Part shown: positions 32,371 through 57,853 of the stretch, piece after piece
How positions within the stretch are numbered: position 1 is the stretch's first letter
How the letters are laid out: each line of letters starts with the position of its first letter
Assembly: GCA_021780675.1 (NCBI GenBank)
Contig: JAJXYH010000004.1
Span: 5,668 to 69,667 of the forward strand
Source: a bacterium
GTDB taxonomy: Bacteria > Patescibacteriota > Microgenomatia > Levybacterales > UBA12049
Reading direction: 5' to 3'
DNA length: 64,000 nucleotides
Translations under genes and position numbers: made by a program
Notes under the pieces: model-generated
What the model saw: only the letters and a program-made list of their open reading frames with translations
The model's database searches: none
What the model was told of the DNA's origin: nothing

Positions 32371-33510
32371 TTACTGTATCGGCCTAACCGGTACAAGCCA
32401 GTACCAACCAGTACCACCTAGGTATGCAGAATACCATTTAAATTCATTAGACAAAGACGTACAGCCATTTGGATCTCTCACGTGTATATCCACACCTCCT
32501 GAGGAATTAATTCTAACATCATCAACAACAAAAGAATGACCTCCATTAATTGGGGGCCAATAAGCACCAGCAAACAATAGATATCCATTGCTCAAATAAC
32601 TTTTAGCTTGTGTGTAATTTATTGATTGAGAACCAGACTTTAGATTTACGTGTGGATCTTCATATCCAAGAGACTTAAACCAGTTATCTTTTTGGGTAGA
32701 AAATGTCCAAAAACTTGTTCCCGTACGACCGCTTCCCGGTAGGTTGGACCACCCGTTTGTGTCAAAATCAGCCGCAATTTCTGCAGGTCCATGCGTGTCG
32801 CAATAGCTACTCATAATCATTGCCAAGCTGGTTGGGCCACAACCGGTACTAGCAATTGTTCCCGAATCAAAACGCCTACTTGAATAACTTTGCCCCCACT
32901 GACAATAAAATTTATTTGTTGGAGAAGCTTTGCAACCCGAACCTGGTGGTGTGGATGAGGACCCCGAACCGGGAGGCAGGCAACAGATTAAACCCTGCCC
33001 ACAAACTAACCCTCCGGTATCTTGTACCATTGGGGGAGTCAAGGTTGTGCAATCAGTGCCGGCAGGCTTACATAAAGAACCTGTAACGGATGAGCATTGT
33101 GTTGATTGGTTATTAGCTGTTGTTGTTGGTTGACCAGTAATAACAGTTATGATTGCAGTAAAAATGATTACCACCAGTATAACTACTACCACAATTAAAA
33201 CAGGAATAATCCAGGCAGGTGCAGAAGAGACAATTACCGTAGCAATTCGTCTTTTAACCTCTTTTTTTACCCTATCTTCCAGTTTGTTTTTTGCAGCACC
33301 ACCGATATTTCTTAACGTTCCTCCTCCTGGAATGTTGCCACCACTCTGTCTTCCAGACGCTTCGTCGTTGGTGTTACCGCTCCCTATATTTCCCGTAAGA
33401 TTTCTGGACAACCTATTAATTTTAACACCCTGTTTTAAAGTGTTTGGTTTATTTACGCCCTGTTTTAAGGTGTTAGGTGTAGGTTTTCCCGAACTACTAC
33501 TGTCTGCCAT
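32371..33510 (-). CDS. membrane-anchored C39-like/CHAP-like cysteine peptidase domain protein (candidate cell-wall hydrolase of the T4SS-like locus)
   Basis: CQWGQSY...STGCGPTSLAMIMSSY (Cys nucleophile in a C39/CHAP-like context) and a downstream GGHSFVVDDV His. N-terminal tandem repeat KPNTLKQGV x2, one TM, Cys-rich linker. Confidence 0.5.
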   Translation of the reverse strand: MADSSSSGKPTPNTLKQGVNKPNTLKQGVKINRLSRNLTGNIGSGNTNDEASGRQSGGNIPGGGTLRNIGGAAKNKLEDRVKKEVKRRIATVIVSSAPAWIIPVLIVVVVILVVIIFTAIITVITGQPTTTANNQSTQCSSVTGSLCKPAGTDCTTLTPPMVQDTGGLVCGQGLICCLPPGSGSSSTPPGSGCKASPTNKFYCQWGQSYSSRRFDSGTIASTGCGPTSLAMIMSSYCDTHGPAEIAADFDTNGWSNLPGSGRTGTSFWTFSTQKDNWFKSLGYEDPHVNLKSGSQSINYTQAKSYLSNGYLLFAGAYWPPINGGHSFVVDDVRINSSGGVDIHVRDPNGCTSLSNEFKWYSAYLGGTGWYWLVPVRPIQ

Positions 33511-33529
33511 AAATTAATAATACCAGATT

Positions 33530-35392
33530 TTAATCATTTACAATGTTTGGATGTGGTGAAGACGCAGGCATTGGGTCCGGAAGCTCAATGGGTTCTTCTT
33601 GCGGATTTTCTTCAACAACATCCTCAACCTCTTGCGGCTTCTTATCCTTATCTTGCGGATTAGTAGAAATCATATCATGTTCAAAAGGCGCTGCAACTAC
33701 TTGCATTGCAACGTGATTTTGCCCTGCGAAAAACAAACCCTCACCAATATTTGCAGACAGGAGTAGTTGCTTTTCTCCAACAGTTAAATAAAAAATATCA
33801 GCAATCATATCAACCTCTGCAGGACTTTGTTTTAAAAGCATTTGGATAGAAGAGTTGGAAAGCACAGCTTTTCCATAGTCGGTTGATAAAAAATCTTCGG
33901 CATCTTGAGTTGCTGTAGTTAATGCAAGATAGTATTTTCTTGCTCTTTTAGCAACACCATACACAAATGAGGCGGAATCTTCATGCTTCATCATATACCA
34001 GGCTTCATCAAGAATTAATAAGCGTTTTTTTAGGGTTTTTCTTACCTTTGTCCAAACAAAATCTAAAATTATATGCATTGCAATTGGTCTTAATTCATCC
34101 TCCAAAGCCTTAATATTAAAAACCGTAAAAGGATTGGTAATATCAAAGTTCGACTGTTGGTTAAAAAGGCCGCTTAGGCTTCCTTTAATAAATCTTTCCA
34201 GGCGTAAAGCAAGGTCTTTAGCCGCGTTATCTTCCATTCCCAAAAGAACTTTATAAAGATCTTCCATTAGTGGTGGGGTTTTCTTTTGTGTTTCAGGGTC
34301 GGTGGTAATTCCTTTTAATCTGTATGTTTCAACGAGTGCCCTATCTAAAATTGCATCATGTTGAGCATCAAGCTCACCAAGGACTATTTTTAAAAGTCCG
34401 TGTAGGGATAAGATTTTTAAACCAAGTTCATTTTCATCTTTTTCATAAAGTCCGGAAAGATCAAATGGGTTGATTTTTATATTTGAGCTTGATGCAAAAG
34501 TTACCTCCTCGCCACCCACAAGCTCTGATAATTTAGAATATTCACCTTCAGGATCTATGATTATGATTTCTGCACCAAACATAAAATTTCTTAATGCCTC
34601 AAGCTTAATTAAATATGATTTTCCCGCCCCCGATTTTCCAAACACAACTTCATTCGCGTTTTCCAAACTGAATCTATCAAAAATGATTAATGAACCGTTT
34701 TGTTGGTTTATCCCATACATGATTCCTTTATCTTGGGCCAAAATGGCTGAGGTAAAAGGAAAGGTTGAAGCAAGCGATGTGGTATCCATATTCCTGGTTA
34801 TAAAAAGCTTATCTTGACCAAGTGGGATGGTAGACTTAAACCCTTCTTCCATTTGAAGGGTTGCGGGTTTTGGAACCATAAGGATTGAGCTTAGTGTGGT
34901 TGTAAGTTTTTTAGAAGCTTCGTTTAAGTCCTCCAATTTTTCGGAAAAAAGCGTAATATAAAGACTAAATTGGAAAAATCTTTCCATGCCTTTAGCAAGT
35001 TCTTCTTGAACCGCAAGAGCATCTTCTAAAGAGGCGGAAACCTTTGGGTCTACCTGAAGACCTTCTTCTTCCTGAGAATAGATAGTCGCCTCCATTTCGG
35101 TAATTTTTCTTCTAAGATCTGATAAAACATCTGCAGAAGAAGTTGGATATAAGAACATAGAGACATTCATTGAATGATCAAAATTAATTAATGGCTCGAG
35201 CCAGTTTGCGGAAACAAACCTCGGATACCCAACAACAAACAAAGTTTTGTAATATTTTTCTCCTACGCGAATATGGTTAAAGTCTACTTCAACAGAAGGA
35301 GGCGCGATAACATCAGGAATAGAAACCAAATCTCGCTTGATATCTGGTTGTGCATCGTCGTTTTTTACAGTATTTTTTTTGCCGAAAGTCAT
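33530..35392 (-). CDS. virB4: VirB4/TrbE/CagE-family type IV secretion ATPase (ATPase part)
   Basis: IRVGEKYYKTLFVVGYPRFVSANWLEPL motif, Walker A FGKSGAGKSY, Walker B LLILDEAWYMM (DEAW). Confidence 0.75.
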   Translation of the reverse strand: MTFGKKNTVKNDDAQPDIKRDLVSIPDVIAPPSVEVDFNHIRVGEKYYKTLFVVGYPRFVSANWLEPLINFDHSMNVSMFLYPTSSADVLSDLRRKITEMEATIYSQEEEGLQVDPKVSASLEDALAVQEELAKGMERFFQFSLYITLFSEKLEDLNEASKKLTTTLSSILMVPKPATLQMEEGFKSTIPLGQDKLFITRNMDTTSLASTFPFTSAILAQDKGIMYGINQQNGSLIIFDRFSLENANEVVFGKSGAGKSYLIKLEALRNFMFGAEIIIIDPEGEYSKLSELVGGEEVTFASSSNIKINPFDLSGLYEKDENELGLKILSLHGLLKIVLGELDAQHDAILDRALVETYRLKGITTDPETQKKTPPLMEDLYKVLLGMEDNAAKDLALRLERFIKGSLSGLFNQQSNFDITNPFTVFNIKALEDELRPIAMHIILDFVWTKVRKTLKKRLLILDEAWYMMKHEDSASFVYGVAKRARKYYLALTTATQDAEDFLSTDYGKAVLSNSSIQMLLKQSPAEVDMIADIFYLTVGEKQLLLSANIGEGLFFAGQNHVAMQVVAAPFEHDMISTNPQDKDKKPQEVEDVVEENPQEEPIELPDPMPASSPHPNIVND

Positions 35393-36051
35393 TTTTCCAA
35401 TACCTCCTGCTCTGATGGCTTAACTAAATTTTCCGCCTGCTCAAAGTTAATATTGGCATCGTTAAATATTTCATAAAAAAGTTTTACTAATTTTTCCTTT
35501 CCCAGTATTTCAGCTCTTAAATTAACTCTTCCTATTTGGTTTAATAATCCTTCTGCTTTTGAGTGTAGGGCAGATTTTGCGCCAACCGCAAATAAATTTT
35601 GCTCAGAATTGACTCCCATTTGTTGAGAAACTCCACCGATACCGCTTTCCAAAGAAGAATAATAAATCACAATATAGAATTTTTTGTCAAGAATGGTATT
35701 AACCTTCACAAGTTCGGAGATAAAATCTTTATACATTGAGATATATTTTGAGAATAATGGATTTTTTGATTGTTGTGCCTCGTCTGCTAAGAGCTTTATA
35801 TACGATGAAATATTTACCCTTTTACTTCTTATGATTATTTGTACAGGGTAGGATATTGAATTCAAAAGCGCAGCATAAGCATAAATTTTAGCATCCTGTT
35901 CGTCAGGTGAAAGAAGTGCAAAGTTCGTGGCACTTATTTCAAGGACAATACATGCATAACCACCATTTAAAATTACCACATCATCAACAATATCCTGGAT
36001 TTCGGTAAATTTTTGGGTTGAGTTAGATAATTTTTGGGCAGAGCCTTTCAT
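35389..36051 (-). CDS. VirB4 N-terminal-domain-like protein (probable split N-terminal part of VirB4)
   Basis: The pattern VDDVVILNGGYACIVLEISATNFALLSPDEQDAKIYAYAALLNSISYPVQIIIRSKRV follows the CagE_TrbE_VirB N-domain logic. ATGA overlap with the downstream ATPase ORF. Combined length ~840 aa, close to canonical VirB4. Confidence 0.4.
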   Translation of the reverse strand: MKGSAQKLSNSTQKFTEIQDIVDDVVILNGGYACIVLEISATNFALLSPDEQDAKIYAYAALLNSISYPVQIIIRSKRVNISSYIKLLADEAQQSKNPLFSKYISMYKDFISELVKVNTILDKKFYIVIYYSSLESGIGGVSQQMGVNSEQNLFAVGAKSALHSKAEGLLNQIGRVNLRAEILGKEKLVKLFYEIFNDANINFEQAENLVKPSEQEVLEK

Positions 36052-37382
36052 TAATTAAAAAGAGACCTCCTTAATTCTTCTCTTGTATCTATTGATATAA
36101 TTTCAAGCGGCATAATTATTTCACCGGACGCTTTAAATCCTACCGTTTCAAACTTATTTTGTCCTCTTGGATCTTCAAATTCTATACTATAGTCACCGTC
36201 TGTAAGAGCAGTTGCAGAAGCAAATTGTCCCAAAGCGTTTGTTTTAAATGCCCTGACGGCATTTCCCTGTAAATCTTTTACCTCAACCAATATATTTGGT
36301 AGGGGGTTTCCTCTTGGATCTTTAACGATACCAGAAATAACATTTGGAAATTCAGGGGCAGCAACTAAACCAACACTTTTGGTTAAGTTTTGCGGAATAC
36401 TTCTCACTAATTTTGCTTCCTGTGGTTGTAGTTGTGCAATTTGTGGTATAGCAATATTTTGATTTTGCGAAGTCATTTGCTTTTGAATTTGTACTAATTT
36501 ATCTTCAAGTTGTTGTTTTTGAAGCTGCATATCGCTTAAGCTTTGCTGAAGTTCTAAAACTTTTTGATGGGCTTCTAAAAATTGTTTTTCATCTTGCTGC
36601 GAAACTGTTTGTAATGGCGCAGGTTGCGGCGGAGCGGGTAGTGGAGTAGTGGCTGTATCCGGTTTAGGCTTTAACTGCTGTGAGACGTCTTGAATTATTT
36701 CCGGAGTTTTTATTGTGGTGTCTATGGTATTTATAGCTGCTGCTGGTTTAACAGGGCTTGTAATATTGGGTAAAGTTGCCAGCTGTTCCACCGCTTCAGG
36801 TTGCGGAGCTTGATTTGAGTATGCGTGCTGCGGAATATAGCTCGGTAGGTTAACAGGCGTTCCACTTTTTTGATAATGATCAACATTTTGTAAAAACACC
36901 ATTTCTTTTTGGTCAAGCTTGCTGGCTGATTTGGGAAGTGTTTTCAAAAAACTTTGAAGCTGCTGATCGGACATATCAGAAATAGTTTGACGTTTTTTTG
37001 CAAAGTCACTAATTTTTTTTACCTCTTGTTCTTGTAACCCCTCCGAACCCTGTTGATAAATATATTGAGTAGGCTTAGTTAGGGCTTTTATTAAATGCGT
37101 TATCATTACATCAAGCGGCCTTCCGTCTATTGGTAAAAATGCCAAAGAGGCTCCCATAGCGGCAGAAAGAACAGCAAGGGGTATTTTAAGTAGAAAAAAA
37201 AGCGGAGAAATGTAAAAAACCCAAGCAACTATAAATCCCGCAGTAAGGTAGCCGAATTGTTTTATGGTCATACTCCCAATTAGTTTAAACTGGAATCCCG
37301 TAATGTCTTGTGGTATCGGATGGTTTTCGATGTCCATATAAAAAAGCATATAACGTGAAAAATCTGGTTTCAAGAGAATCAA
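36051..37382 (-). CDS. PrgI/VirB3-like membrane protein fused to Q/P-rich coiled region and a C-terminal carboxypeptidase-regulatory-like (transthyretin-fold) domain
   Basis: N-terminal IPQDITGFQFKLIGSMTIKQFGYLTAGFIVAWVF resembles the PrgI family. C-terminal GIVKDPRGNPLPNILVEVKDLQGNAVRAFKTNALGQFASATALTDGDYSIEFEDPRG resembles the CarboxypepD_reg fold. ATGA/ATG overlap with the next gene. Confidence 0.45.
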   Translation of the reverse strand: MILLKPDFSRYMLFYMDIENHPIPQDITGFQFKLIGSMTIKQFGYLTAGFIVAWVFYISPLFFLLKIPLAVLSAAMGASLAFLPIDGRPLDVMITHLIKALTKPTQYIYQQGSEGLQEQEVKKISDFAKKRQTISDMSDQQLQSFLKTLPKSASKLDQKEMVFLQNVDHYQKSGTPVNLPSYIPQHAYSNQAPQPEAVEQLATLPNITSPVKPAAAINTIDTTIKTPEIIQDVSQQLKPKPDTATTPLPAPPQPAPLQTVSQQDEKQFLEAHQKVLELQQSLSDMQLQKQQLEDKLVQIQKQMTSQNQNIAIPQIAQLQPQEAKLVRSIPQNLTKSVGLVAAPEFPNVISGIVKDPRGNPLPNILVEVKDLQGNAVRAFKTNALGQFASATALTDGDYSIEFEDPRGQNKFETVGFKASGEIIMPLEIISIDTREELRRSLFN

Positions 37383-37431
37383 AGTGGGTCAAAAGTCTTT
37401 GAAAGTATATCTAAATTTCCGTGAAAAATTC

Positions 37432-37752
37432 TTATCCGCAAGTTCTGAATGAGAATTCAAATGAAGTGGTGTCAATACACCCAACCCCTGTTACACTTCC
37501 TATAAATTTAATGATGAAAAATGACAGCATTACTAAAACTAACCCTAACACGGCAAAGGCAATTGTTTTTCTGGCTTGGTCAAGTTTCTTGGGATCACCC
37601 CCCGAAACTAAAAACCGTATTCCACCTATGATAATAACAATTACGGCAATAGATCCGGACAGTAAAATTCCCCAGTAAATAAAATTTAATATTATTATTG
37701 GTATACAACTAATTGTTGCAACCCCATTAGAACTACACGTTCTCCAGTCCAT
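37432..37752 (-). CDS. VirB2/TrbC-type T4SS pilin-like protein (short paralog)
   Basis: Shared C-terminal module: TM...SGGDPKKLDQARKTIAFAVLGLVLVML. Confidence 0.55.
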   Translation of the reverse strand: MDWRTCSSNGVATISCIPIIILNFIYWGILLSGSIAVIVIIIGGIRFLVSGGDPKKLDQARKTIAFAVLGLVLVMLSFFIIKFIGSVTGVGCIDTTSFEFSFRTCG

Positions 37753-37803
37753 GATTTAAGCTTAAAAGAAATAAAAACAAATTGCAAGTAGGTTTAGTTA
37801 TGT

Positions 37804-38202
37804 TTAGAAAGCTGTGGAGCCATTAATGTTTGGAATGACGACATTAGACAATGTATTAAGTCCAAAGAACTGGAGTATTAAGTTCAAAACCAAGTATGAA
37901 AGGAATATGATTACCAAACCAACGATTGCTGCAACAATATGTTCTCTAGCCGAAGCAACAGCTTGTTTGTCTCCGCCGGATGTTAACCATTTAAATCCTC
38001 CCCAAACAAGATAGAGAAGTGCAACTAAAATTGCTACTGCAAAAATTAAAGCAATCACAGTACCAACGATTGAACCGATATTATTGGAGCTTAAAGCACA
38101 AAGATGATTATATGGTCCTGCACATGCATCAACAGCAAAAGCAGGAACTGTAACTGTAAGAAATACTGCTGCGGGGGTAACCAGTGCGATTGCTTTTTTC
38201 AT
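37804..38202 (-). CDS. VirB2/TrbC-type T4SS pilin-like protein
   Basis: Signal peptide (AFA-VD). C-terminal LYLVWGGFKWLTSGGDKQAVASAREHIVAAIVGLVIIFLSY. Confidence 0.6.
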   Translation of the reverse strand: MKKAIALVTPAAVFLTVTVPAFAVDACAGPYNHLCALSSNNIGSIVGTVIALIFAVAILVALLYLVWGGFKWLTSGGDKQAVASAREHIVAAIVGLVIIFLSYLVLNLILQFFGLNTLSNVVIPNINGSTAF

Positions 38203-38271
38203 GTATATATTTATACTAATAAAGTTTTGATTTGTTTGTCAAGTACCAATTTAGCTTCAATTTAACATTAA

Positions 38272-39003
38272 TTAAAGAGTCGGTACGTTAAAAAACTGTA
38301 AGATAAGATTTACAATCAAAGCAGCAAGAAATACTATAATCAAACCAACGATTGCAAAAATAACTTTTTGTCTGGCAGAGGTTAAAGTCTGTTTGTTTCC
38401 ACCGGACATTAACCAGTCAAATCCTCCCCAGACCAGGTAAAAAAGCGCAAGAAGAATTGCAATTACAAACAAAATGTTTATTCCGAAGGCAAGAGCAGTA
38501 TTGTATTTTACAATAGGTACTCCGCCCGGCTGTCGCGCTTTAAAGAAATTTGCCAAAGTATCTAAAGCAACTGCGGGATTAACTTCGCCCCAATTCCCCC
38601 AACTGTTACCGGTTTGAGTACCATTATTATTTGAAATACATCCTGCAGAATGATCACATTTGTCTCCGGTTGAGCAGGTTAATGTTATTATATTGCAGGT
38701 TGTTCCTTGTGGGGCACCACTGCTTGGAAAGCAATTCTGAGTGGTTCCTTCCCAGTTGCAGTTTTGTGGACAGGTTTTACAATTCCCGCCAGAAGCAACA
38801 CAACAAACTCCCAATCCACCCTGACCACCTAATGAACAGACCCTAGTACTATCAACATATTGATTCGCTTGGCCACAAGTTGTTACACCGTTTGCTACGC
38901 AATCCAGGCATCCTGGAGGAAGGAGCGCTCCTTGGGCAACAGGGGTTTTAATCACGAAAATAAATAATAATAAAAAACTAAAAAAATAAAATAATTTTTT
39001 CAT
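38272..39003 (-). CDS. VirB2/TrbC-type pilin-like protein with Cys-rich N-terminal ectodomain
   Basis: Signal peptide, ~25 Cys in the ectodomain. C-terminal FYLVWGGFDWLMSGGNKQTLTSARQKVIFAIVGLIIVFLAAL. Confidence 0.6.
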   Translation of the reverse strand: MKKLFYFFSFLLLFIFVIKTPVAQGALLPPGCLDCVANGVTTCGQANQYVDSTRVCSLGGQGGLGVCCVASGGNCKTCPQNCNWEGTTQNCFPSSGAPQGTTCNIITLTCSTGDKCDHSAGCISNNNGTQTGNSWGNWGEVNPAVALDTLANFFKARQPGGVPIVKYNTALAFGINILFVIAILLALFYLVWGGFDWLMSGGNKQTLTSARQKVIFAIVGLIIVFLAALIVNLILQFFNVPTL

Positions 39004-39005
39004 AA

Positions 39006-40454
39006 TTATTGATTAAAAATATTTAATATATCAACTCCAATGAAATTCATAAGGGTAAATGTAAAAATTATTAGAACCAGTCCTACAATTGCTGCAGTTA
39101 ATTGCTCCTGCGCATCTTTAGTTTTTTCGGGGTTTCCTTGTGAAACTATTAATTTATAAGCGGAGTAAATTATTAAAAGTGTTGCGATTCCGCCTGCAAT
39201 AGATAAAATAATTGAAAAGATTTTTGAAACTAACCCCTGAGAATCAGTGCTAAAATTACCAAATGCTGTTGGGCAAGTTGTTATATATTTCCCGTTCACA
39301 AGGGTTGTCGTGCAGGGAAGTTGACCGTTGGTAAATCCAGAACCAAGCCCCCCTCCACAACCAACCCCTTCAACGCACTGACTGGAGCTACAGCTTTGGT
39401 AAGTTGGAGAAGTAGTCAAAGCGGGTATATCTGGATGACTTTGTCTAGTACATTTTTGATTTTCCTGATTGGCAAGACTATTAAAAGTATAACCGCTAGG
39501 GCAGACAGCACAGTCTGTTCCTCCTCCTCTGCAGTGTGTTGCAGTACAGTCTGAAGCGCTGGTATAAGCCCCTGTCCCCGTACCTGTATGCACTACGCAT
39601 CCATATTGTGTGCAGTCATACCCGCCGCGGTTTGCATCAGCAGACCAAGTGCAACAGGTTTGAGTTGCGGCGCTTTGGCTTTTGCAGTAGGCGTTTCCAC
39701 TTGAGGTTATAATTCCCCCTGCTTGATGGCAGACGTTATTATTAGCTACACACTCTCCATCTCCTCCAGCGGGTGCAAAAGACTGGCAGGTTGGCGGTTC
39801 ACACTTGTTGGTTTTTAAATTACAGGTGTAACCTGTGTTTGCCCCACTACAGCTTCCATCAGCATTAGCGCTACAGGAGACTGTTAAATTGCAGTTCTTA
39901 TTGTAAACTAATCCACAATTTTTTGTGCCGCAAATTGCTGCTTGAGTGCAGCTTGGTGAAACGCATTTGCCGCTTCCCTGGTCCCATGAATAACCAGAAC
40001 TGCAAAGGCATTCTAAAATCGGTACCGCACCCGATTGGTTTGAATCTATACAGTTTAAACCAAGATTTGGTTTACATTGATACGTTCCATCGCAAGATTG
40101 ACCATAAGTTTTGTAATATGTGCAAACTCCAGTAGTTTTATTGGTATAAGCGAGAATAGAATTGCACGTACACATGCCATTTGGAGTGTAATATGTGGTG
40201 CAAGTTTGTTTACCTGTTGTGGGGTCGGTGACACATGTTTCATGTGAAGTATCTGTAGGGTTACTACAATACGTTGGGTAGCAACAAATACCAGGTGTTG
40301 CACCGCACGGCGCATTGGTGTTGGGCGTGCAATCTACCGCGGCAGCTGCCCAGGCATTATTTTTTAAAGGGGCTAAAGTAAAAAATAATATAAATAATAA
40401 AATTGCAGGAAACAAAAACTTAAGCAAACGCTTCATAAAATTATAGTAGAACAA
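39006..40454 (-). CDS. VirB2/TrbC-type pilin-like protein with large (~400 aa) Cys-rich ectodomain
   Basis: Signal peptide, about 60 Cys. C-terminal AYKLIVSQGNPEKTKDAQEQLTAAIVGLVLIIFTF pilin module. Confidence 0.55.
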   Translation of the reverse strand: MFYYNFMKRLLKFLFPAILLFILFFTLAPLKNNAWAAAAVDCTPNTNAPCGATPGICCYPTYCSNPTDTSHETCVTDPTTGKQTCTTYYTPNGMCTCNSILAYTNKTTGVCTYYKTYGQSCDGTYQCKPNLGLNCIDSNQSGAVPILECLCSSGYSWDQGSGKCVSPSCTQAAICGTKNCGLVYNKNCNLTVSCSANADGSCSGANTGYTCNLKTNKCEPPTCQSFAPAGGDGECVANNNVCHQAGGIITSSGNAYCKSQSAATQTCCTWSADANRGGYDCTQYGCVVHTGTGTGAYTSASDCTATHCRGGGTDCAVCPSGYTFNSLANQENQKCTRQSHPDIPALTTSPTYQSCSSSQCVEGVGCGGGLGSGFTNGQLPCTTTLVNGKYITTCPTAFGNFSTDSQGLVSKIFSIILSIAGGIATLLIIYSAYKLIVSQGNPEKTKDAQEQLTAAIVGLVLIIFTFTLMNFIGVDILNIFNQ

Positions 40455-49991: not shown

Positions 49992-49992
49992 T

Positions 49993-50739: not shown

Positions 50740-50742
50740 TTT

Positions 50743-51159
50743 ATGAAATTTGAATTTTCCGCAGGAGGAATAGTTTATAAAAAAGAAAATGGAAAAGTTT
50801 TTATAATTGTTGCAAAACATTCATCGCATCACGGATGGGTTTTTCCAAAAGGATTAATCGGCGATCATATTAAAAACGAAGGAAAAGAAGAAACCGCCGT
50901 TAGAGAGGCGGAAGAGGAAACAGGCGCTAAAGGAAAAATTATTCAGGAGCTTTCCCCCGTGACATTTTGGTATGAATGGGAAGGGGAAAAGCGTAAAAAA
51001 ACAGTTTATTACTTCTTAATGGAATTTATTCGAGGAGATATAAAAAAACACGACTGGGAAATGGAAGAGGTTGAGTGGTTGCCAAAGGATAAAGTTTTAG
51101 ATAGGTTAACTTATGAATCGGATAAAAAAGTCTTCCAAGAAGCACAAAAACTGATATAA
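50743..51159 (+). CDS. Nudix hydrolase
   Basis: Nudix box GLIGDHIKNEGKEETAVREAEEETG. Confidence 0.75.
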   Translation: MKFEFSAGGIVYKKENGKVFIIVAKHSSHHGWVFPKGLIGDHIKNEGKEETAVREAEEETGAKGKIIQELSPVTFWYEWEGEKRKKTVYYFLMEFIRGDIKKHDWEMEEVEWLPKDKVLDRLTYESDKKVFQEAQKLI

Positions 51160-51172
51160 TTACGAATGTCTT

Positions 51173-51262
51173 GGAGGGGTCGCATAGTGGACTAGTGCGC
51201 TTGCTTGGAAAGCAGGTATATCCGCAAGGGTATCGAGGGTTCGAATCCCTCCTCCTCCGCCA
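51173..51262 (+). tRNA. tRNA-Ser (anticodon GGA), CCA encoded
   Basis: Acceptor GGAGGGG/CTCCTCC, anticodon stem CTTGC/GCAGG with loop TTGGAAA, long variable arm, T-arm GAGGG-TTCGAAT-CCCTC. Confidence 0.8.
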
Positions 51263-51264
51263 AG

Positions 51265-52635
51265 CTATTTAATCTTTTCAGAGGCTAGTGTTGTCGCAAC
51301 CACAACAAGAAGTGCCAGAAGACCTAGTCCTTTAGCTCCATTTTTTAATTTACCCAGCGCATCTAATTTTTTGCGTTTTTCCTCCGCCTCCGGGGAGGTA
51401 TCATCTTTTAATTTTTCTTCAGCATCGGCAATAACTGCTTCAATAACCGGTTTAACATCTCCGCTTCTAATTGCATCAGTAATTTTTTTTGCAGTTTCTG
51501 CGGGAATTTCACCGCTTTGTATTTTATTGCCAAAATCTGCAATTAAATCATGTGCGCTTTGTCCACCGTTTGCTTCTAAAACCGTACCCCAATTTTGAAG
51601 CATTGAAGCTTCGTTTTGCAAAGACAATATTTGCTGGCTTATTTGCGCTTTTTGCGCCTCAGTCGTTGCTGTCTCCAATCGTTTACTAAGTTGACTTAAT
51701 TCATTTGGAATTTCTGTGCTTCTTGTTGAAATATCATCGGGAGTAAGATTTGCTCCCATCAGTACGATTTCGGCAAGTGTATTACCTGAAATAATCACTT
51801 CATCGCCCATTGCTTGTCTTGCAGCTTCTATTTGATCAGCAGAAATAGATGATTTTTGAGAATCCAGATAAGTATCAATATCGGATCTTGTAATAAGGTT
51901 TGCTTCTCTTGCTTCTTGTTCAAGTAGATCCCGGGTTCTAGCGATATTTTCATCACTAAACATCTCTTGCGCTAATGCCTGGGCTTTGTTAGGATCTTGC
52001 ATTGTGGCAATATAATAATCTATAAACTGAGCGTCATCTCCTGTAAACATTGCTGTCAATTCCTGCTGTTCGGCAACAATTTGCGCATCAATTAAATCAT
52101 CCCAGGGAACTATTTGAGTTCCTTGTGGTTTTGAACCGGTTGGAAGTTCATAAGCATCCTCGTCTTGTGTATTTTCAAGAATTGCCATAGCTTTTCCGTT
52201 GTCATTTACCACCCCGCTTATTTTTAAGACTCTGACGACCTTTTGTTCTCCATTAAGTGTGATCGTTACATAAATTGGTTTTTCACCTCCTGAATGGTCG
52301 GTAGTTATATCAACGGGTTCTTCTTTTCCATCTTGAGCATTCGTTAACATCACTTTTTCGCCATTTGAATGAGTTAGGGTATCATTTTTTAAGCCCATTA
52401 AGCCCTTAAGTAAATGTCCTGTTTCTCCTCTTTGGAGTGGGGGATCTTTAGTTAGTTTTCTGGCAAGCAAAACTTTTCCAAGTCTAATTGCGTCTTTTTT
52501 TGCAGTATCTCTTATTTCATCTGTTATTACGGGCGCTTCATGATTTTCTGCATCAGGTTGGGCAGTATCATCTGGCAATTCTGGTGCGGCAGTGTCTGGT
52601 TGTGGTTGTGGAGCTTCGGCTCCGGTTTCGCTCAT
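51265..52635 (-). CDS. tail-anchored hypothetical protein (acidic Pro-rich N-terminus, single C-terminal TM)
   Basis: 456 aa. C-terminal GLGLLALLVVVATTLASEKIK. Confidence 0.4.
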   Translation of the reverse strand: MSETGAEAPQPQPDTAAPELPDDTAQPDAENHEAPVITDEIRDTAKKDAIRLGKVLLARKLTKDPPLQRGETGHLLKGLMGLKNDTLTHSNGEKVMLTNAQDGKEEPVDITTDHSGGEKPIYVTITLNGEQKVVRVLKISGVVNDNGKAMAILENTQDEDAYELPTGSKPQGTQIVPWDDLIDAQIVAEQQELTAMFTGDDAQFIDYYIATMQDPNKAQALAQEMFSDENIARTRDLLEQEAREANLITRSDIDTYLDSQKSSISADQIEAARQAMGDEVIISGNTLAEIVLMGANLTPDDISTRSTEIPNELSQLSKRLETATTEAQKAQISQQILSLQNEASMLQNWGTVLEANGGQSAHDLIADFGNKIQSGEIPAETAKKITDAIRSGDVKPVIEAVIADAEEKLKDDTSPEAEEKRKKLDALGKLKNGAKGLGLLALLVVVATTLASEKIK

Positions 52636-52648
52636 AAATTTATATTAG

Positions 52649-55627
52649 TTGATTTTTATTGTCAAATCAATTAATAATAAAGATAGTATGGCTATAGACA
52701 ATATAGACAATGTGTCAACGCGTGGGCCAGATGCTGCAGGTGATAAAAAAAGTAATCAGCCACCAAAAAGAATTGTTCCTTTTTCTCCAACCAGCGATAA
52801 AACCGCAATAGATGCAAATGGAGCGGCTGTTAAGGTTAGAGCATCTGAGTTTTTAACTAGAGTATCTGGATTAGAAACAACAGATAGAGACAGGGTTTTA
52901 ACTGGAAAAGTTGAAAGAGACGAACTTCCGATTAGTGCAGAAGTAGTGACGGGTTTAAGAAATTTTACAGAAAGTTATGTCCGAAAACTTGTCCTACTTA
53001 GAAAAGACGGTGTGTATGACCAAATGAAAAGGCAGCAAGAAAGAGGTAGCGACCAGGCGGATTATTTGGAAGACAAGTATATGCTGGAGCTTTTTACCGA
53101 CAAACAAACTGGTGAAGCTAAAAAATTCGGGGAAATAGAAAATTTAATAACTGAACATCCTCTGATTTTGCAAAATGTAATGCTGGTTGCTGAAAGATAT
53201 GCAAGAGATACGCTGGCAGCTTATGGGTTAAGGGCAGAGATGTATAGGCCTGGGAAAAGAACAGAGCTAACAGATCCAAGACTTGAGCGAACAATTGATC
53301 TTCCGGTTGATCAAGGAGCGTTAAGATCAACTTATAACCGAGTACGAGATTGGACGCAAAGAAGACACGAAGTGGGTGGAAGGCCCGATCCAAACGATCC
53401 CGATTCCAATTTAGATTATTTTTTAAACCATGCCGGTATACCGGTTGGAGCTGGAGCAATTGGTGTTGGAACGATAGGTGGGGTAGTCGGAGCGGTCGGA
53501 GCTTTGTTTGGTGCGGGACCAGGAGAAGTGGGGGGTGCTATTGCCGGTGCTGCAGTTGGCGCGGGTGCTGTTTTGGGTGGGTTAGCGGTCGGTAGATCAT
53601 TCCGGGAGGGTCCAAGATTAAGGTTAGTTGTAGATAATGAAGTTAGAGCGCAGTCTCAAAGAGGAGCAGAAAGACTTAGAATGGAGAGGTTAATTGGTGT
53701 TAACCCGACAAACTTAACAGAATCAACCGACAGCCCTGCTGCAAATGATGCGATTAAAATAATATATCTAAGGCAAATGTATTTAAGGAATTTAGATAAT
53801 TCAGGTGAAGTATTTGATGCCTTTAGCGATCAATTTATAACTAACGGAGGTACGGCAAACCGGTTTGAGGAAACGCGAACGGTTATGGGGTCTAGGGTAA
53901 ATGCGGAATTTCAAAGTTTAAGAGATGCTTATTTAAGAAATCATCCTGATGCAACCCCTACACAACTTAGAGATTTTTACAGAAGAGCGCAGGAAACAGT
54001 TTTATTTAGAAATTTTGAGGAAGTTTCCGAAAAGGTAAGGCCCGAAGAAAACATAGCAGGAAAGTTGCAAACTGCTATTGATGCAAGAAAACCCGAAGGG
54101 TCAGCTCATGTGGAAAGAACAAGAGTTGCAAGTGAAGAAAAAGGCCGTTTGACTACCGAAAAACAAACTCTTGCTGCATCAAGAGAAGCCTTAACAGGAT
54201 ATGAGGGGAAATTACTAACAATAGAAAAAGCGCGTCAGGACCTACAGAGGGAACTTGCAAAAATTAATGGGGGCGGATTGGATTACGCTCATGCATTACA
54301 AGAGCTGCGAATAGCTCAAAGCGCAACCGGAACAACGATTACAATTACAACAGATACGGGTATAGAAACAATTACAGATTTACATAGCGATATATTAGCT
54401 CATAGTCAGGGTCTTGCTAATGATCTTGGGAATATTAGAATTCCAAATCCTGGTGAGGATACAGATGCATATCGAGATTTCCGTAGTGCAGAGGCTGCAA
54501 AGATTCGTTTAGCTCATAAACCCGAAACAGACGAAGACAACAGGAAAACACAACTTATAATAAGTAGAATAACAGAATTAACAAGACTCCAGGGGGTAAT
54601 TGATGAAGCATCAAGGAATTTACTTCAGGCAGAAGAAATAAAAGCCGGTGGGCAAGAATTTGTAAAATTTCAAGAAGCATTTCAGCGTGTTGATTCCCTT
54701 GGTCTTCCAGGGGCATTATTGTTTACCCAAACGCTTGAGCAAAATCTAGCTGATGCAAATAATTTGTTCGATATGGATCCTAATTTCGGCTGGCCTGAAA
54801 GCGAAAACAACCAGATGCGGGAAGTTTTAAGAAGAGCAACTATTCAAGCAAGGGCAAACGATGCAGAAAGGGCAGATCCTATTCTTGCTCCTTTTGAGAA
54901 TAATTTTGATGAATTTAGGGGACTTGGTTTATCTACGGAACAAATTGCCTTAATGAGCCTAGACGACTTAAGAGCAAGATATGTTCGCACACATCCTGCG
55001 GCAACCGGAACCGAAGCAGATAATGCTCAAAGATGGGCTTTGGGACAATTAAGGTTTTTACAAGCGTCTGTTAACCAAGAAGCAACAGTAGTAGATAATT
55101 CTCTTAGGGTACAGGAGAGGTTTATAAACGGAGTTGATCTGACTCAAGAGAGAGAGCAACTGGAAGTTGTAAAAGATATGTGGGATAAAAGAAAAGGCAT
55201 TAGAGCAAGAGCAGTTGATGGGGTGCTTAATAATCGCGCTGGCCTTGAAAATACAGACCACGTTCAAGCAAATACGGAAGGTTTTACTCAGGCAGAGGCA
55301 GATTCACAGCTACCAAGAAATGTTTTGGAGGTTTTAAATATGATTACCGGTTATCAAGACGTAGATAATGCAGACGGTAGAGCTGAAGCTTTTGCTAAAA
55401 TATGGAGAAATTTTGGGCAAAATCCACCAACAGCTGATACACTGTTGTTAGTAAGATTAAGAGATGCGTTTGAGGTTCCGCAAGCTCACGCAAACAGCTT
55501 TAACGAGCTAGCAGCCTATCTTAGGACAAGGTTTAGAAACAATAGGATTAATTCTGGTAACATTGCGCAATACGTAGGAAGAAACGCTGTTTCACAATTT
55601 ACTGAGTGGGGAAGGAGCTTAGGATGA
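52649..55627 (+). CDS. large hypothetical protein (992 aa) with ~55-aa glycine-zipper hydrophobic segment
   Basis: GIPVGAGAIGVGTIGGVVGAVGALFGAGPGEVGGAIAGAAVGAGAVLGGLAVG at about residues 255-310. The rest is soluble, helical and acidic. Locally GC-richer DNA. Confidence 0.45.
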   Translation: MIFIVKSINNKDSMAIDNIDNVSTRGPDAAGDKKSNQPPKRIVPFSPTSDKTAIDANGAAVKVRASEFLTRVSGLETTDRDRVLTGKVERDELPISAEVVTGLRNFTESYVRKLVLLRKDGVYDQMKRQQERGSDQADYLEDKYMLELFTDKQTGEAKKFGEIENLITEHPLILQNVMLVAERYARDTLAAYGLRAEMYRPGKRTELTDPRLERTIDLPVDQGALRSTYNRVRDWTQRRHEVGGRPDPNDPDSNLDYFLNHAGIPVGAGAIGVGTIGGVVGAVGALFGAGPGEVGGAIAGAAVGAGAVLGGLAVGRSFREGPRLRLVVDNEVRAQSQRGAERLRMERLIGVNPTNLTESTDSPAANDAIKIIYLRQMYLRNLDNSGEVFDAFSDQFITNGGTANRFEETRTVMGSRVNAEFQSLRDAYLRNHPDATPTQLRDFYRRAQETVLFRNFEEVSEKVRPEENIAGKLQTAIDARKPEGSAHVERTRVASEEKGRLTTEKQTLAASREALTGYEGKLLTIEKARQDLQRELAKINGGGLDYAHALQELRIAQSATGTTITITTDTGIETITDLHSDILAHSQGLANDLGNIRIPNPGEDTDAYRDFRSAEAAKIRLAHKPETDEDNRKTQLIISRITELTRLQGVIDEASRNLLQAEEIKAGGQEFVKFQEAFQRVDSLGLPGALLFTQTLEQNLADANNLFDMDPNFGWPESENNQMREVLRRATIQARANDAERADPILAPFENNFDEFRGLGLSTEQIALMSLDDLRARYVRTHPAATGTEADNAQRWALGQLRFLQASVNQEATVVDNSLRVQERFINGVDLTQEREQLEVVKDMWDKRKGIRARAVDGVLNNRAGLENTDHVQANTEGFTQAEADSQLPRNVLEVLNMITGYQDVDNADGRAEAFAKIWRNFGQNPPTADTLLLVRLRDAFEVPQAHANSFNELAAYLRTRFRNNRINSGNIAQYVGRNAVSQFTEWGRSLG

Positions 55628-56007
55628 CAACTAAAATTAATACTAAAACAATGATAAATTATTTGCCTTTTCCAAACGAGGTTAAATTAGAATTGTTGGG
55701 TAAATTCGATAATTTATCAAATGATGATCAAACTAAAATTACGGATTTGGTTTGGGATGCATTTGAAATTGTTTACAACAACAAAGTTCAAGAAAATTTA
55801 GATAAATTAATTGCGGAGGCCGATGAGAATGGACAAAAAACAGATGATACATTTTACGGAAAAGCAGTTGATATGACAGACCAGGAAGTTAGAGAAGGTT
55901 TAACATCAACAACAGATGTTGCCGATCTTACCAATGTTAGAAAAAGCATGGAATTAATTGTAAACGAAATAAAAGCCGCACAAAATGAAGGAACGCTGAA
56001 AAAGTAA
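55624..56007 (+). CDS. small acidic hypothetical protein, translationally coupled to the 992-aa gene
   Basis: Start ATG at 55624 overlaps the upstream TGA (ATGA). GGAAGGAG SD at 55611-55618. Confidence 0.4.
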   Translation: MTTKINTKTMINYLPFPNEVKLELLGKFDNLSNDDQTKITDLVWDAFEIVYNNKVQENLDKLIAEADENGQKTDDTFYGKAVDMTDQEVREGLTSTTDVADLTNVRKSMELIVNEIKAAQNEGTLKK

Positions 56008-56009
56008 TT

Positions 56010-57800
56010 TTACCTACTGGTTCTTAATGCATTAATTATTACCGCTACGTCGATTGCTTCTTGTAAAAATGCTCCCATAATTGGTGGAATAAAACCAAAG
56101 GAGGCAAAACCCATTCCCACAATACTAATTCCAATTCCAACAAATATGCTTTGTTTGGCAATTGCAATTGTTCGCCTGGCAATATTTAAACATTCCAATA
56201 CAAGCGAAAAATCTCCTCCCAAAAATACAATGTCCGCAGCCTCGCTGGCAGCAGTTTGCTCTTCGTTACTAAACACCATGCCAACATCTGCCATTGCAAG
56301 AGCAGGTGCGTCATTAATACCATCTCCCACCATAGCGGTTACTTTACCTGCCTTTTTAAGTTTTGTTATTCCTTCCTGTTTATCTTGCGGGGTACTTTCA
56401 GCCATAATATCGATATTTACCCCCAGCATTTCTATTACTTTTTCAGCCGCTTGTTTTTTATCTCCGGTAAAGATTTTAATATCAAATCCCTGGGCAATTA
56501 AATCCTTAATGATTGTTTTTGATTCAATTTTGATTTCATCTTCAAAATGGAACTGGGCAATTTGTTTACCGCCGGTAAACAGTCCGATTTCCATACCATT
56601 ATGACTATTAAGTTTTGATAAAGTAAATTGCTTATTATCAACCGTACCGGTTATCCCAACCCCGATTTTTTCTTCAATTTTTTCTGCACTTTTAAGGTGC
56701 GCCTTTTTAGCGGATGCATACTCAACAATAGCTTTTGCCAAAGGGTGCAAAGAATTTCTTTCGATGCTTTTAGAAATTGCCAAAAGTTCTATTTCACCAA
56801 ATGATTTATCCATAATTTTAAATTCGGTAACATGGGGTCTTCCCAAAGTTATGGTTCCGGTTTTATCAAAAATAATCGCGTTTGCTCTGGATAATACTTC
56901 AAGTCCCGAAAGTTTTTTAACAATCATACGTTTTTTGGAAGCTAAATTTACTCCTCCTAAAAGTGCTATCGGCGTTGCAATAATCAAAGGGCAGGGTGTA
57001 GCGATAGCAAGTACCGAGAGAGCCCGGGTTAAATCAAAACCTGAGTAAGTATAAGCAAAAGCGGTAATTATAAGTGTTATAACCGTAAAATATCCGGAGT
57101 ATTTATCAGCTAGGCGTATAAATGGAGTTTTTTCTTCCTGTGCATTTTTAACCATGGTAACGATTTTGTTGTAAGTTGAATTCTTTTGCTCACTGGTTAC
57201 TTTAATAACAATCGGGTTTCCAATATTTATAGTTCCACTTCTTATCGGGTCGCCTTTTATTTTTTCAATGGTGTAAGGCTCACCCGTTAGCGAAGATTCA
57301 TCGGTCAGTCCGCTGTCGGAAATTAGAATTCCATCAAGACCGATTACTTCACCTTTTCTAACATAGATTTCTTCGCTCTTTTTAACTTTTTCAATTTTTG
57401 TTTTTTCTCCAATTTCATTATTTTTCCAATACAGCACTTCATCGGGGATTCTTTCGGCAAGTTTTGTTAAAGATTTTTTCGCTTGGGACACGCCATAATC
57501 TTCTAAAGTCCTACCCGATGCAATCATTAAAGCTAAAATTGTCGATACCAGATATTCCTGTGTTATAAGTGCAACTACAATTGCCAGGATGGCAATATAA
57601 TCAAGCGCAAATTGTTTTTTAAGAATTGAAGTTACTGTTTCATAAAACAAGCGGTAACTTCCAAGAAGAGTTGCCAAAACCCCAATAATTCCAGCTGGAG
57701 TATTTAATTTAAGAAGAAGTAGGATAACATAAAGAATAATTCCAAAGGTTACAATAAGCGGAACTAAGAATGTTTTAAGCAAATTAATTTTTAGGTTCAT
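56010..57800 (-). CDS. P-type cation-transporting ATPase, P1B-like (CPx motif, no N-terminal metal-binding domain)
   Basis: DKTGTIT phosphorylation motif, GDGINDAPAL hinge, TPCPL in a TM helix. Confidence 0.75.
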   Translation of the reverse strand: MNLKINLLKTFLVPLIVTFGIILYVILLLLKLNTPAGIIGVLATLLGSYRLFYETVTSILKKQFALDYIAILAIVVALITQEYLVSTILALMIASGRTLEDYGVSQAKKSLTKLAERIPDEVLYWKNNEIGEKTKIEKVKKSEEIYVRKGEVIGLDGILISDSGLTDESSLTGEPYTIEKIKGDPIRSGTINIGNPIVIKVTSEQKNSTYNKIVTMVKNAQEEKTPFIRLADKYSGYFTVITLIITAFAYTYSGFDLTRALSVLAIATPCPLIIATPIALLGGVNLASKKRMIVKKLSGLEVLSRANAIIFDKTGTITLGRPHVTEFKIMDKSFGEIELLAISKSIERNSLHPLAKAIVEYASAKKAHLKSAEKIEEKIGVGITGTVDNKQFTLSKLNSHNGMEIGLFTGGKQIAQFHFEDEIKIESKTIIKDLIAQGFDIKIFTGDKKQAAEKVIEMLGVNIDIMAESTPQDKQEGITKLKKAGKVTAMVGDGINDAPALAMADVGMVFSNEEQTAASEAADIVFLGGDFSLVLECLNIARRTIAIAKQSIFVGIGISIVGMGFASFGFIPPIMGAFLQEAIDVAVIINALRTSR

Positions 57801-57853
57801 AAGCTTGTCTAGATTATATCAAGTTTTAAATGGTATAATTGAGTGTAATTCAA

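Follow-up and report, generated by a model that had tools for sequence, protein, structure and literature searches.

A conserved three-gene module of Patescibacteria with a very probable link to type IV secretion and a candidate membrane-inserting protein

Introduction

Patescibacteria (CPR) carry a type IV secretion system (T4SS) gene cluster which two papers relate to the MPF-FATA conjugation apparatus of monoderms (Quinonero-Coronel et al. 2025, PMC12102498; Wang et al. 2023, PMC10633639). Three papers (PMC12102498, PMC10633639, PMC12857230) place the cluster beside dnaA/dnaN in Microgenomatia and report it to be without relaxases, so that it probably does not transfer DNA. They describe it as essential in one cultivated species, no other T4SS being reported as essential to its owner's growth, and as a machine whose exported substrates have not been identified. 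VirB6 is scarce in Microgenomatia, VirB8 homologues are few and T4CP homologues are rarely found near virB4, according to one of these papers (PMC12102498). Published T4SS catalogues hold only those components that known profiles recognise.

In Legionella, the pore-forming Dot/Icm protein IcmQ has a small chaperone, IcmR, and the chlamydial Inc proteins carry a bilobed hydrophobic hairpin. [quoted passage not shown] 2018, PMC6110835; Trenz et al. 2026, PMC12981334), and shielding by chaperones has been demonstrated for the type III substrates (PMC6110835, PMC12981334). Glycine zippers are found in the Pfam Gly-zipper families, in the SlyB and YiaD lipoproteins and in the toxin TelE (PMC10434224).

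The window, by which we mean the whole stretch of 64,000 nucleotides analysed here, shares the CPR T4SS layout as given in the papers cited above: VirB4-like, TraC/TrsD-like and PrgI/VirB3-like genes, a divergent array of VirB2-like pilin genes, dnaA/dnaN and no relaxase. It also holds three genes, A, B and C, which, unlike the catalogued CPR T4SS components, match no component profile. They are not mentioned in passages of the published component catalogue or of the 2025 review, and would be additional lineage-specific parts or substrates of the T4SS.

Results

The three genes lie between tRNA-Ser(GGA) (51173-51262) and a P-type ATPase gene (56010-57800), where the original prediction had placed them; the coordinates of its three reading frames were borne out and all three are real genes. 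Gene A (51265..52635, minus strand) encodes 456 amino acids and is divergent from gene B (52688..55627, plus strand). Protein B had been taken as 992 residues long. The large reading frame stands, but the length does not: the most likely start is the ATG at 52688, giving 979 residues, and not the TTG at 52649, since the homologues begin with MA and the gene calls of four public assemblies likewise give 979 residues. Gene C (55624..56007, plus strand) encodes 127 amino acids from the ATG at 55624 rather than the GTG at 55606. None of the three proteins has an N-terminal signal peptide or an N-terminal transmembrane segment.

Homologues of A, B and C co-occur in identical arrangement in 10 of 10 complete related loci, with one match for each profile per complete locus; two of the loci came from scans, L006 from genomes and L008 from a metagenome. 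The linkage of the trio has been kept over deep divergence, with a divergent spacer of fixed length between A and B and with B and C coupled or tightly linked. The proposal that the three genes form one functional unit is supported.

The T4SS-like cluster of the window adjoins dnaA/dnaN (32371..40454, minus strand) and contains, by Pfam matches, genes for a C39-like peptidase, a VirB4-like ATPase, TraC-like and PrgI/VirB3-like proteins and four VirB2-like pilins. In loci L009, L011 and L014 the gene order is dnaN, VirB4-like, TraC-like, PrgI, A, B, C and four pilins, which is the order of the window with the trio placed between PrgI and the pilins. At L008 the trio adjoins three PF18895 pilin genes. 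The link to the T4SS locus, at first only tentatively suggested, is upheld by these four loci, in which the trio is located in or beside the virB4/virB3/pilin cluster. In the window, some 11 kb separate the trio from the pilin array (10-11 kb when L010 is considered as well), and the DNA fetched for L005 and L006 reaches no Pfam-confirmed T4SS gene. In L012 and L013, no T4SS gene lies within 10 kb of the trio, which is surrounded by glycosyltransferase and Pth genes. The lack of T4SS genes within 10 kb in these two loci and the distance of about 11 kb in the window are observations that speak against the reading favoured below, of a T4SS-linked module with an exported B. A, B and C showed no sequence or fold homology to the core components VirB3, VirB4, VirB6, VirB8, VirD4, VirB1 and VirB2, and no match to a VirD4-like coupling protein was obtained among the scanned window ORFs of at least 100 residues, which likewise counts against that reading.

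The trio diverges rapidly. Between the window and L009, L011 and L014, identity is 70-76% for the VirB4-like protein, 52-56% for DnaN and 46-51% for the pilin, compared to 32-46% for C, 22-30% for B and about 21-24% for A. A and B diverge far faster than the VirB4-, TraC- and PrgI-like proteins, DnaN and even the pilins, and the rate of the trio is far above that of its housekeeping neighbours. pN is well below pS, indicating purifying selection on the trio genes; as dS is saturated between species pairs, only pN << pS can be stated. No SNP in the trio separates the near-identical strains L001-L004, so that variation within the species is uninformative.

A, B and C have no match in Pfam, NCBIfam, PHROGs or PADLOC, so the statement that none belongs to a recognisable family holds for the curated libraries. 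For B it fails, as about 100 uncharacterised relatives exist. A word-indexed search with B returned the protein itself and one relative of 37% identity, and a profile of 59 sequences again returned two proteins, probably because low-complexity Gly/Ala words swamp the candidate filter. The family was revealed by exhaustive profile search, with 103 cluster representatives at E<=1e-3 and 78 at <=1e-10; nearly all are 900-1100 residues long and matched over their full length, and none is annotated. B is therefore no orphan but a member of an unannotated family of proteins of about 1000 residues. In eight longer relatives, Pfam showed no fused domain. The single copy, constant length and full-length homology of B resemble a machine part more than a typical effector, an observation that weighs against export.

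B is Arg-rich and Lys-poor, and all-alpha in the AF2 model (pLDDT 85.3; an earlier run from two sequences had given 35.8). A sequence profile search of the PDB with B gave nothing below E=0.02, and Foldseek, run with the model on PDB and BFVD, returned no match at E<=0.001; the best-ranked structures (Umb1, JetA, SipD/IpaD, AhlB/SmhB, colicin Ia and tape-measure proteins) had TM scores <0.2 and were rejected. Remote homology and structure thus yielded no significant PDB match. B has no NTPase motif and its fold matches no T4SS part in the PDB. Viral contigs searched held no relative of B or C, and none of the other large unknown proteins of the cluster proved to be a paralogue of B. The B protein of the window has an Arg-rich C-terminus, ending in RTRFRNNR and following residues. 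Over the family, the last 40 residues have a mean net charge of +0.6 (-0.5 for all windows), with +3 or more in 23% of members as against 11% of all windows; a positively charged C-terminus acting as T4SS signal is therefore probably not a trait of the family. That the Arg-rich end of the window protein is probably not shared by the family is a point against export.

The Gly/Ala/Val stretch foreseen in B is present at residues 249-303 (53432..53596, plus strand), as a pair of glycine-zipper segments of marginal hydrophobicity with a PGE turn between them. A span of 61 residues here includes 20 Gly and ten GxxxG motifs, against one such motif in the remaining 918 residues, and its 21 small-xxx-small motifs are those of a glycine zipper in the general sense. 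In 71 of 95 family members a run of 30 or more residues at this position is almost free of charge, its composition being conserved and its sequence not, and the hairpin is weak or absent in some relatives (e.g., P0047, P0048 and P0056). The model has pLDDT <50 here. The Pfam glycine-zipper models (Gly-zipper_2TM, _Omp, _YMGG and YiaD) gave no match to B at E<=0.1; weak sub-threshold matches are to YiaD_Gzip and SlyB, and the sole match to a family model, that of NF053611 to the L005 homologue, reached E=0.035 and 13.8 bits, the cutoff being 175.

Crude sums on the Hessa scale, calculated without position dependence or length correction, are +2.6 and +2.7 kcal/mol for the two hairpin segments (family median +4.2, none <0), in contrast to -1 to -5.8 for genuine transmembrane segments of the window. 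[quoted passage not shown] On either side of the hairpin the flank carries a weak positive charge (+1.6 and +0.4), which would also suit N-in/C-in anchoring in the membrane of the producer itself. These flanks, and the weak or missing hairpin of some relatives, are further observations that speak against export.

The description of A as acidic and tail-anchored was found to be correct (pI 4.52, net charge -33). Its lone hydrophobic segment is at the extreme C-terminus, residues 433-451 (GAKGLGLLALLVVVATTLA; 51283..51339, minus strand), and has a crude Hessa-scale sum of +2.2 kcal/mol, which is marginal. The homologues of A are 404-484 residues long, every one with a hydrophobic tail, and the gene occupies the same position in L005, L006 and L008-L014. 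A word-indexed search returned only A itself; the profile of gene A matches loci left out of its building with E values of 1e-13 to 8e-8.

Gene C is small, acidic and translationally coupled, as had been proposed: its ATG overlaps the TGA of B (ATGA), and AAGGAG, read from the sequence as its ribosome-binding site (55612..55617, plus strand), lies within the 3' end of B, 6 nt upstream of the ATG. The overlap of 4 bp is kept in L005, L006, L008, L010 and L011, and a gap of 4-27 bp is found in L009 and L012-L014. Profile matches of C, only weak and Rop-like (E 0.03-0.1), suggest a helical protein. C is the best conserved of the trio, with 32-53% identity in loci where B shows only 22-35%.

The region had also been described as a GC-richer island next to a tRNA gene. 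Its GC content, 0.400 against 0.356 for the window, lies 1.1-1.5 SD above that of other ORFs. The GC3 values of A, B and C (0.245, 0.270 and 0.242) do not exceed the background of 0.288 +/- 0.038, and the RSCU of the trio correlates with the background at r = 0.94 (0.70-0.90 for control ORFs). The surplus GC of the trio is due to Gly/Ala/Arg codons and the peak of 0.61 at 53432-53596 (GC1 0.82, GC2 0.67, GC3 0.33) to Gly/Ala/Val codons. Profiling of GC and codon usage thus did away with the compositional island, and the trio is an example of how such an "island" can arise as an artefact of amino acid content. No integrase or recombinase was found: A, B and C are the only non-nested ORFs of at least 60 residues and have no recombinase domain by Pfam. 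There is no att-like repeat, the only tRNA-like repeat being a second tRNA-Ser gene itself. Presence/absence polymorphism was not seen, since the trio is present in 11 of 11 related loci and no empty site was found; in L005, L006 and L010 it is flanked by the same ATPase and His_Phos neighbours. The adjacency of the tRNA is incidental, as four tRNA-Ser genes lie in the area and the flanking one is GGA here and TGA in L005 and L006. Native GC3 and codon usage, the lack of integrase and att repeat and the general presence of the trio together mean that the idea of a foreign island beside a tRNA gene fails.

Judged from its sequences, the trio also fits poorly with an effector/immunity arrangement, because the genes are single-copy, homology of B extends over its full length and a variable toxin tip is lacking. 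The architectures of polymorphic toxin/immunity systems (LXG, Rhs, CDI) were not recognised, Pfam and PADLOC showing neither a trafficking nor a toxin domain. In contrast to such pairs, B is homologous end to end, and C is soluble and better conserved than B.

Discussion

The trio is very probably a native, conserved module linked to the T4SS. A fast-evolving native trio that lies inside the T4SS cluster of relatives makes B a candidate for the membrane-inserted product of this machine, and the best reading of the sequence features is that the module encodes a T4SS-linked, putatively membrane-inserting protein and a chaperone-like partner. Export of B as a membrane-inserting substrate is, taken by itself, a tentative proposal. 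To the reading as a whole, a native, vertically inherited T4SS module from which B would be exported with a chaperone-like partner, we assign a probability of about 0.45.

In the mechanism that we propose, B would be synthesised in the cytoplasm without a Sec signal, and its hairpin may be too weakly hydrophobic for normal co-translational insertion. C, made in stoichiometric amounts by way of the ATGA overlap, would serve as chaperone or adaptor of B. B would then be passed to the T4SS and its glycine-zipper hairpin would enter a membrane, most likely that of the epibiont's host cell, where B could act as translocator or pore, or as membrane-anchored effector. A, anchored by its tail, would be a partner on the cytoplasmic side of the producer membrane, with a role in docking or regulation. 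The very fast divergence of A and B might reflect adaptation to the host interface.

Parallels exist among known systems. [quoted passage not shown] It differs in that it shows no sequence or fold homology to them, its partner gene is downstream and overlapping, and it is made by a monoderm epibiont whose target is presumed to be another bacterium. In concept, a membrane-active protein of a secretion system that is restrained by a small helical partner resembles IcmQ-IcmR, and a hairpin of about 50 residues with both termini on the same side of the membrane resembles Inc proteins. The dense GxxxG motifs and the uncharged Gly/Ala/Val stretch are like those of glycine-zipper proteins and of toxins such as TelE (PMC10434224), but the zipper is internal to a protein of 979 residues and not in a short lipoprotein or at a C-terminal tip.

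In a rather unlikely alternative, A, B and C would belong to the T4SS itself, as structural or assembly subunits located on the cytoplasmic side of the producer membrane. B would be held by a re-entrant or oligomerising zipper hairpin that leaves its two large domains cytoplasmic, A would be held by its tail, C would be a soluble adaptor, and the trio would stand in for VirB6 and VirB8, which profile searches hardly detect in Patescibacteria, or for the T4CP, which is rarely seen beside virB4. The placement of the trio among machine genes in L009, L011 and L014 agrees with this, as do its single copy, constant size and fixed order across deep divergence, the lack of Sec signals, which by default leaves the bulk of the three proteins in the cytoplasm, the non-negative flanks of the hairpin and, as reported in PMC12102498, the scarcity of VirB6 in Microgenomatia, the small number of VirB8 homologues and the rarity of T4CP genes near virB4. 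However, A and B evolve far faster than the VirB4-, TraC- and PrgI-like proteins and the pilins, and the hairpin is less hydrophobic than true transmembrane segments of the same genome. B has neither an NTPase motif nor a fold match to T4SS parts in the PDB, and a conserved polytopic protein of 594 residues at 44287-46071 is a better VirB6-like candidate.

Less likely still, the trio could have a membrane-associated job unrelated to secretion, such as membrane shaping, cell division or envelope scaffolding, with its proximity to the T4SS reflecting only conserved gene order near the replication origin. The surroundings of the trio in L012 and L013 and the P-type ATPase gene that adjoins it in the window, L005, L006 and L010 would suit such a role. 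Placement between PrgI and pilins in three independently assembled, divergent loci, with the adjacency to pilin genes in L008, is unlikely to be due to chance, and the trio evolves at a rate far exceeding that of housekeeping neighbours.

An acquired, tRNA-targeted island with B as a pore-forming toxin, C as immunity protein or partner and A as membrane-anchored accessory is very improbable and in its island part already largely refuted: glycine zippers are indeed present in pore-forming toxins, the T7SS effector TelE among them (PMC10434224), a tRNA gene abuts A and GC is 4 points over the window mean, but GC3 and codon usage are native, integrase and att repeats are absent, every relative examined has the trio with conserved flanks and a varying tRNA, B is homologous over its whole length without a variable toxin tip, C lacks the transmembrane segment typical of immunity proteins against pore formers, and PADLOC, Pfam toxin domains and viral contigs gave no match.

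The trio, with its B of about 1000 residues, offers a definite candidate either for a membrane-active substrate of the machine or for one of its lineage-specific parts, and the A, B and C profiles and the confident B model are ready material for testing. A bolder version, which we consider improbable, is that the host-membrane translocator still missing from the Patescibacteria T4SS is B. Delivered through the pilus-bearing machine, B would oligomerise in the membrane of the host bacterium and open a conduit there, with C as export chaperone and A as membrane dock. If true, the metabolically dependent epibiont would act on its host, or draw material from it, through the B conduit, and the trio would be a new and structurally unprecedented class of T4SS component.

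The divergent spacer between A and B, AT-rich and 52 bp long in the window (52636..52687), measures 45-54 bp in 10 of 10 complete loci, with recurring TTGA...TCAA elements. In the window it has a TTGATTT...AAATCAA symmetry and -10-like boxes near both ATGs, and is a putative compact bidirectional promoter that would yield near-leaderless mRNAs.

Organization and conservation of the A, B and C genes

The open reading frames of the trio A, B and C (51265-56007) were found where the original prediction had placed them, with tRNA-Ser(GGA) abutting A and a P-type ATPase gene abutting C. A (51265-52635, minus strand) encodes an acidic protein of 456 aa (pI 4.5), whose sole hydrophobic segment is its final ~20 residues. 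B had been listed as 992 aa from TTG 52649; the ORF is real but likely starts at ATG 52688 (979 aa, MAIDN...), because homologues open with MA... and, in four public assemblies of this organism, gene callers picked 979 aa. B is rich in Arg (9.4%), poor in Lys (3.3%) and lacks Cys. The predicted coupling of a small acidic protein to B was confirmed: the ATG of C (55624; 127 aa) overlaps the TGA of B as ATGA, with AAGGAG 6 nt upstream. No significant match to A, B, C or their homologues was obtained in Pfam, NCBIfam, PHROGs or PADLOC.

Eleven related loci were compared (L001-L004, near-identical strains, counted with the window as one; L005; L006; L007-L014). Wherever the flanks were long enough, the three genes form one unit: the A homologue, tail-anchored and 404-484 aa long, is read away from B, and downstream of B comes a C homologue of 115-131 aa. 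Profiles of A and C built from seven loci and tested on three held-out loci gave one match per locus each, at E 1e-38 to 1e-25 for C and 1e-13 to 8e-8 for A. B and C overlap by 4 bp in six lineages and are separated by 4-27 bp in four. All ten complete loci have an A-B spacer of 45-54 bp (52636-52687 in the window), which is AT-rich and shows a recurring TTGA...TCAA symmetry and -10-like boxes a few bases from the start codons of both genes; we infer a compact bidirectional promoter with near-leaderless mRNAs. Spacer length and symmetry persist where B is only about 20% identical, so that the geometry of this putative promoter is conserved unusually strongly.

Location of the trio relative to the T4SS cluster

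The T4SS cluster of the window adjoins dnaA-dnaN (29371-31964). Its genes encode a C39-like peptidase, a VirB4-like ATPase matching P-loop_TraG/AAA_10, a 220-aa product whose counterparts in relatives are TraC-like, a PrgI/VirB3-like protein, four pilins (T4SS_pilin) and a regulator of the winged-helix type. It is the Patescibacteria T4SS that has been described as origin-adjacent in Microgenomatia; this system has arrays of VirB2-like pilins and lacks a relaxase (PMC12102498). At L014 the order is dnaN, a 1046-aa gene, VirB4-like, TraC-like, PrgI, A, B, C, four pilins, regulator, a 1255-aa and a 490-aa gene; L009 and L011 share this core order, interrupted by small 23S_rRNA_IVP genes. The order at these three loci is that of the window with the trio placed between PrgI and the pilins, and at L008 the trio has three PF18895 pilin genes next to it. 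The T4SS link, raised earlier as a possibility, was thus substantiated, and we consider it highly probable (about 85%) that the trio is a native module of three conserved genes with a functional tie to the T4SS.

In the window, L005, L006 and L010 the trio neighbours the P-type ATPase; its distance to the pilin genes is about 10-11 kb in the window and in L010, and the DNA fetched for L005 and L006 reaches no confirmed T4SS gene. In this lineage the trio is embedded in a tract bearing four tRNA-Ser genes, which L006 has in another order and orientation than the window. As this tract is reshuffled and the trio lies in the T4SS cluster of several relatives, local rearrangement, and not acquisition, explains its position.

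The B family and its glycine-rich hairpin

Apart from B itself, a word-indexed search with B returned a single 37% relative. When the profile of these two sequences was run exhaustively with HMMER against 1.84 billion representatives, 103 proteins passed E<=1e-3 and 78 passed E<=1e-10; almost all are 900-1100 aa long and matched full-length. The statement that B lacks a recognisable family holds for curated libraries, but relatives exist and B is not an orphan. These are named only 'hypothetical protein' across sources; one, RJQ38428.1, is from a Candidatus Microgenomates MAG. The AF2 model of B, built on a 59-sequence alignment (mean pLDDT 85.3, pTM 0.61), consists almost wholly of long helices (up to 56 residues) with a few short beta elements, low confidence being confined to residues 1-35 and 252-300, the latter being the hairpin. 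Foldseek against 350,000 PDB chains gave nothing at E<=0.001 (best E=0.05, TM 0.13), BFVD no significant match and a PDB sequence-profile search was empty; B therefore matched no solved relative.

The Gly/Ala/Val stretch noted originally corresponds to B residues 249-303, here called the hairpin. It has 20 Gly in 61 residues and 10 GxxxG motifs, against 1 in the other 918 residues. In most family members, residues ~220-300 include a stretch that is rich in Gly and has almost no charged residues, conserved in composition and not in sequence. With Hessa biological-scale values summed over 19-residue segments, a crude measure that lacks position terms, the two hairpin segments come to +2.7 and +2.6 kcal/mol, the best segment in the B family has a median of +4.2 (below 0 in 0/95 members), the A tail anchor +2.2, and the window's genuine TM segments (ATPase, ABC permease, YidC, pilins, a 594-aa polytopic protein) -1 to -5.8. 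Marginal hydrophobicity is also reported for the membrane proteins that type III and IV systems secrete: their TM segments lie just under the inner-membrane targeting threshold (PMC6110835; T4SS review PMC12981334); mistargeting of type III substrates is also countered with the help of chaperones (PMC6110835).

Evolutionary rates and possible roles

Against L005, the ATPase and His_Phos neighbours are 68-70% identical, A 30%, B 38% and C 48%. Against L009, L011 and L014, identities are 70-76% for VirB4-like, 50-56% for TraC-like, 52-56% for DnaN and 46-51% for pilins; C gives 32-46%, B 22-30% and A about 21-24%. pN is far under pS (B, L005 vs L006: 0.19 and 0.69). The trio genes are thus constrained, yet faster-evolving than the machine and its pilins.

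The mechanism that we tentatively prefer is that B may be a T4SS substrate, a translocator or membrane effector that inserts into a membrane independently of Sec; C, co-translated with it, would serve as its chaperone or adaptor, A would be a tail-anchored partner, and the fast divergence of the trio would come from an interface with the host. The main rival, that all three are instead T4SS subunits on the cytoplasmic face, seems less likely: their presence in one copy, their uniform size and the weakly positive flanks of the hairpin agree with such a placement, against which the evolutionary rates and weak hairpin hydrophobicity speak. A membrane role independent of the T4SS, which we regard as improbable, is kept alive by L012 and L013, where no T4SS gene lies within 10 kb of the trio.

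The closest known system to the trio is the Patescibacteria T4SS, and the closest functional analogies are the chaperoned hydrophobic translocators and membrane effectors of type III/IV secretion and glycine-zipper pore formers such as TelE. By sequence and fold, the trio was not assignable to Patescibacteria T4SS parts, type III/IV translocators or TelE-type families. It is absent from the examined passages of a 2025 component catalogue and a 2025 review, and the literature searched yielded nothing on it. We rate the trio as new parts or a new substrate class within a known kind of system.

Nucleotide composition

GC in the trio region is 0.400 against 0.356 in the window, ~1-1.5 SD over the other 34 ORFs, and the excess sits at the first two codon positions. 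For A, B and C, GC3 (0.245, 0.270 and 0.242) is at or below background (0.288 +/- 0.038), and RSCU correlates with background at r = 0.94, eight long control ORFs all being lower (0.70-0.90). The GC peak singled out earlier is the hairpin-coding stretch 53432-53596 (GC 0.61; GC1 0.82, GC2 0.67, GC3 0.33). The proposed GC-richer island did not survive this profiling; it is an effect of amino-acid content. The trio region has no integrase, and the sole candidate for att-like repeats is the similarity of two tRNA-Ser genes to each other. We regard an acquired toxin/immunity island as very improbable.

Neighbouring genes

Presence/absence polymorphism was seen beside the trio and not in it: the trio is kept in all well-flanked loci, but a 388-aa gene (57959-59125, plus strand; weak FGE-sulfatase-like domain, Pfam E=3.4e-4; N-terminal hydrophobic segment), between tRNA-Ser(GCT) and His_Phos, is missing at that site in L005, L006 and L010 and is therefore the real tRNA-adjacent presence/absence gene of the neighbourhood. 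A segment of ~970 bp (60666-61635, including ORF 60959-61348) with TGTGGACACAATCCA at both edges is missing from the otherwise 99.9% identical L001. Just upstream, a comF-like gene looks split (DZR_2 59812-60120 plus a phosphoribosyltransferase piece); in L010 it is intact (235 aa). tRNA-Ser TGA, CGA, GGA and GCT and tRNA-Arg(GCG) lie within 12 kb (46305-57943), and the same set at L006 (6904-15097) has another order and orientation, which suggests rearrangements around tRNA genes.

Beside the T4SS cluster lies a pair encoding a large protein (798-1130 aa) and a polytopic membrane protein (521-594 aa), at 41886-46071 in the window, 2600-6790 in L006, 17498-22677 in L009 and 2462-6832 in L010. 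The polytopic proteins have a signal peptide and 41-61% mutual identity in best BLAST segments, and are candidate VirB6 analogues; the large ones end in a hydrophobic tail and have no BLAST similarity among them. Small 23S_rRNA_IVP/bAvd-like four-helix-bundle genes occur among the T4SS/pilin genes of relatives (L009 8023-8451, 13653-14057 and 15525-15893; L010 1894-2289; L011 1808-2191 and 9088-9465) and not in the window. Since bAvd serves diversity-generating retroelements as an accessory protein, a part in diversifying pilins is conceivable. Two minus-strand genes (23191-24492 and 40480-41913) encode proteins of 433 and 477 aa whose only domain is a C-terminal winged-helix Trans_reg_C, without a receiver domain. 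One of them ends the pilin array, with a counterpart at the same place in L010 and L014, and may be a regulator of the T4SS cluster.
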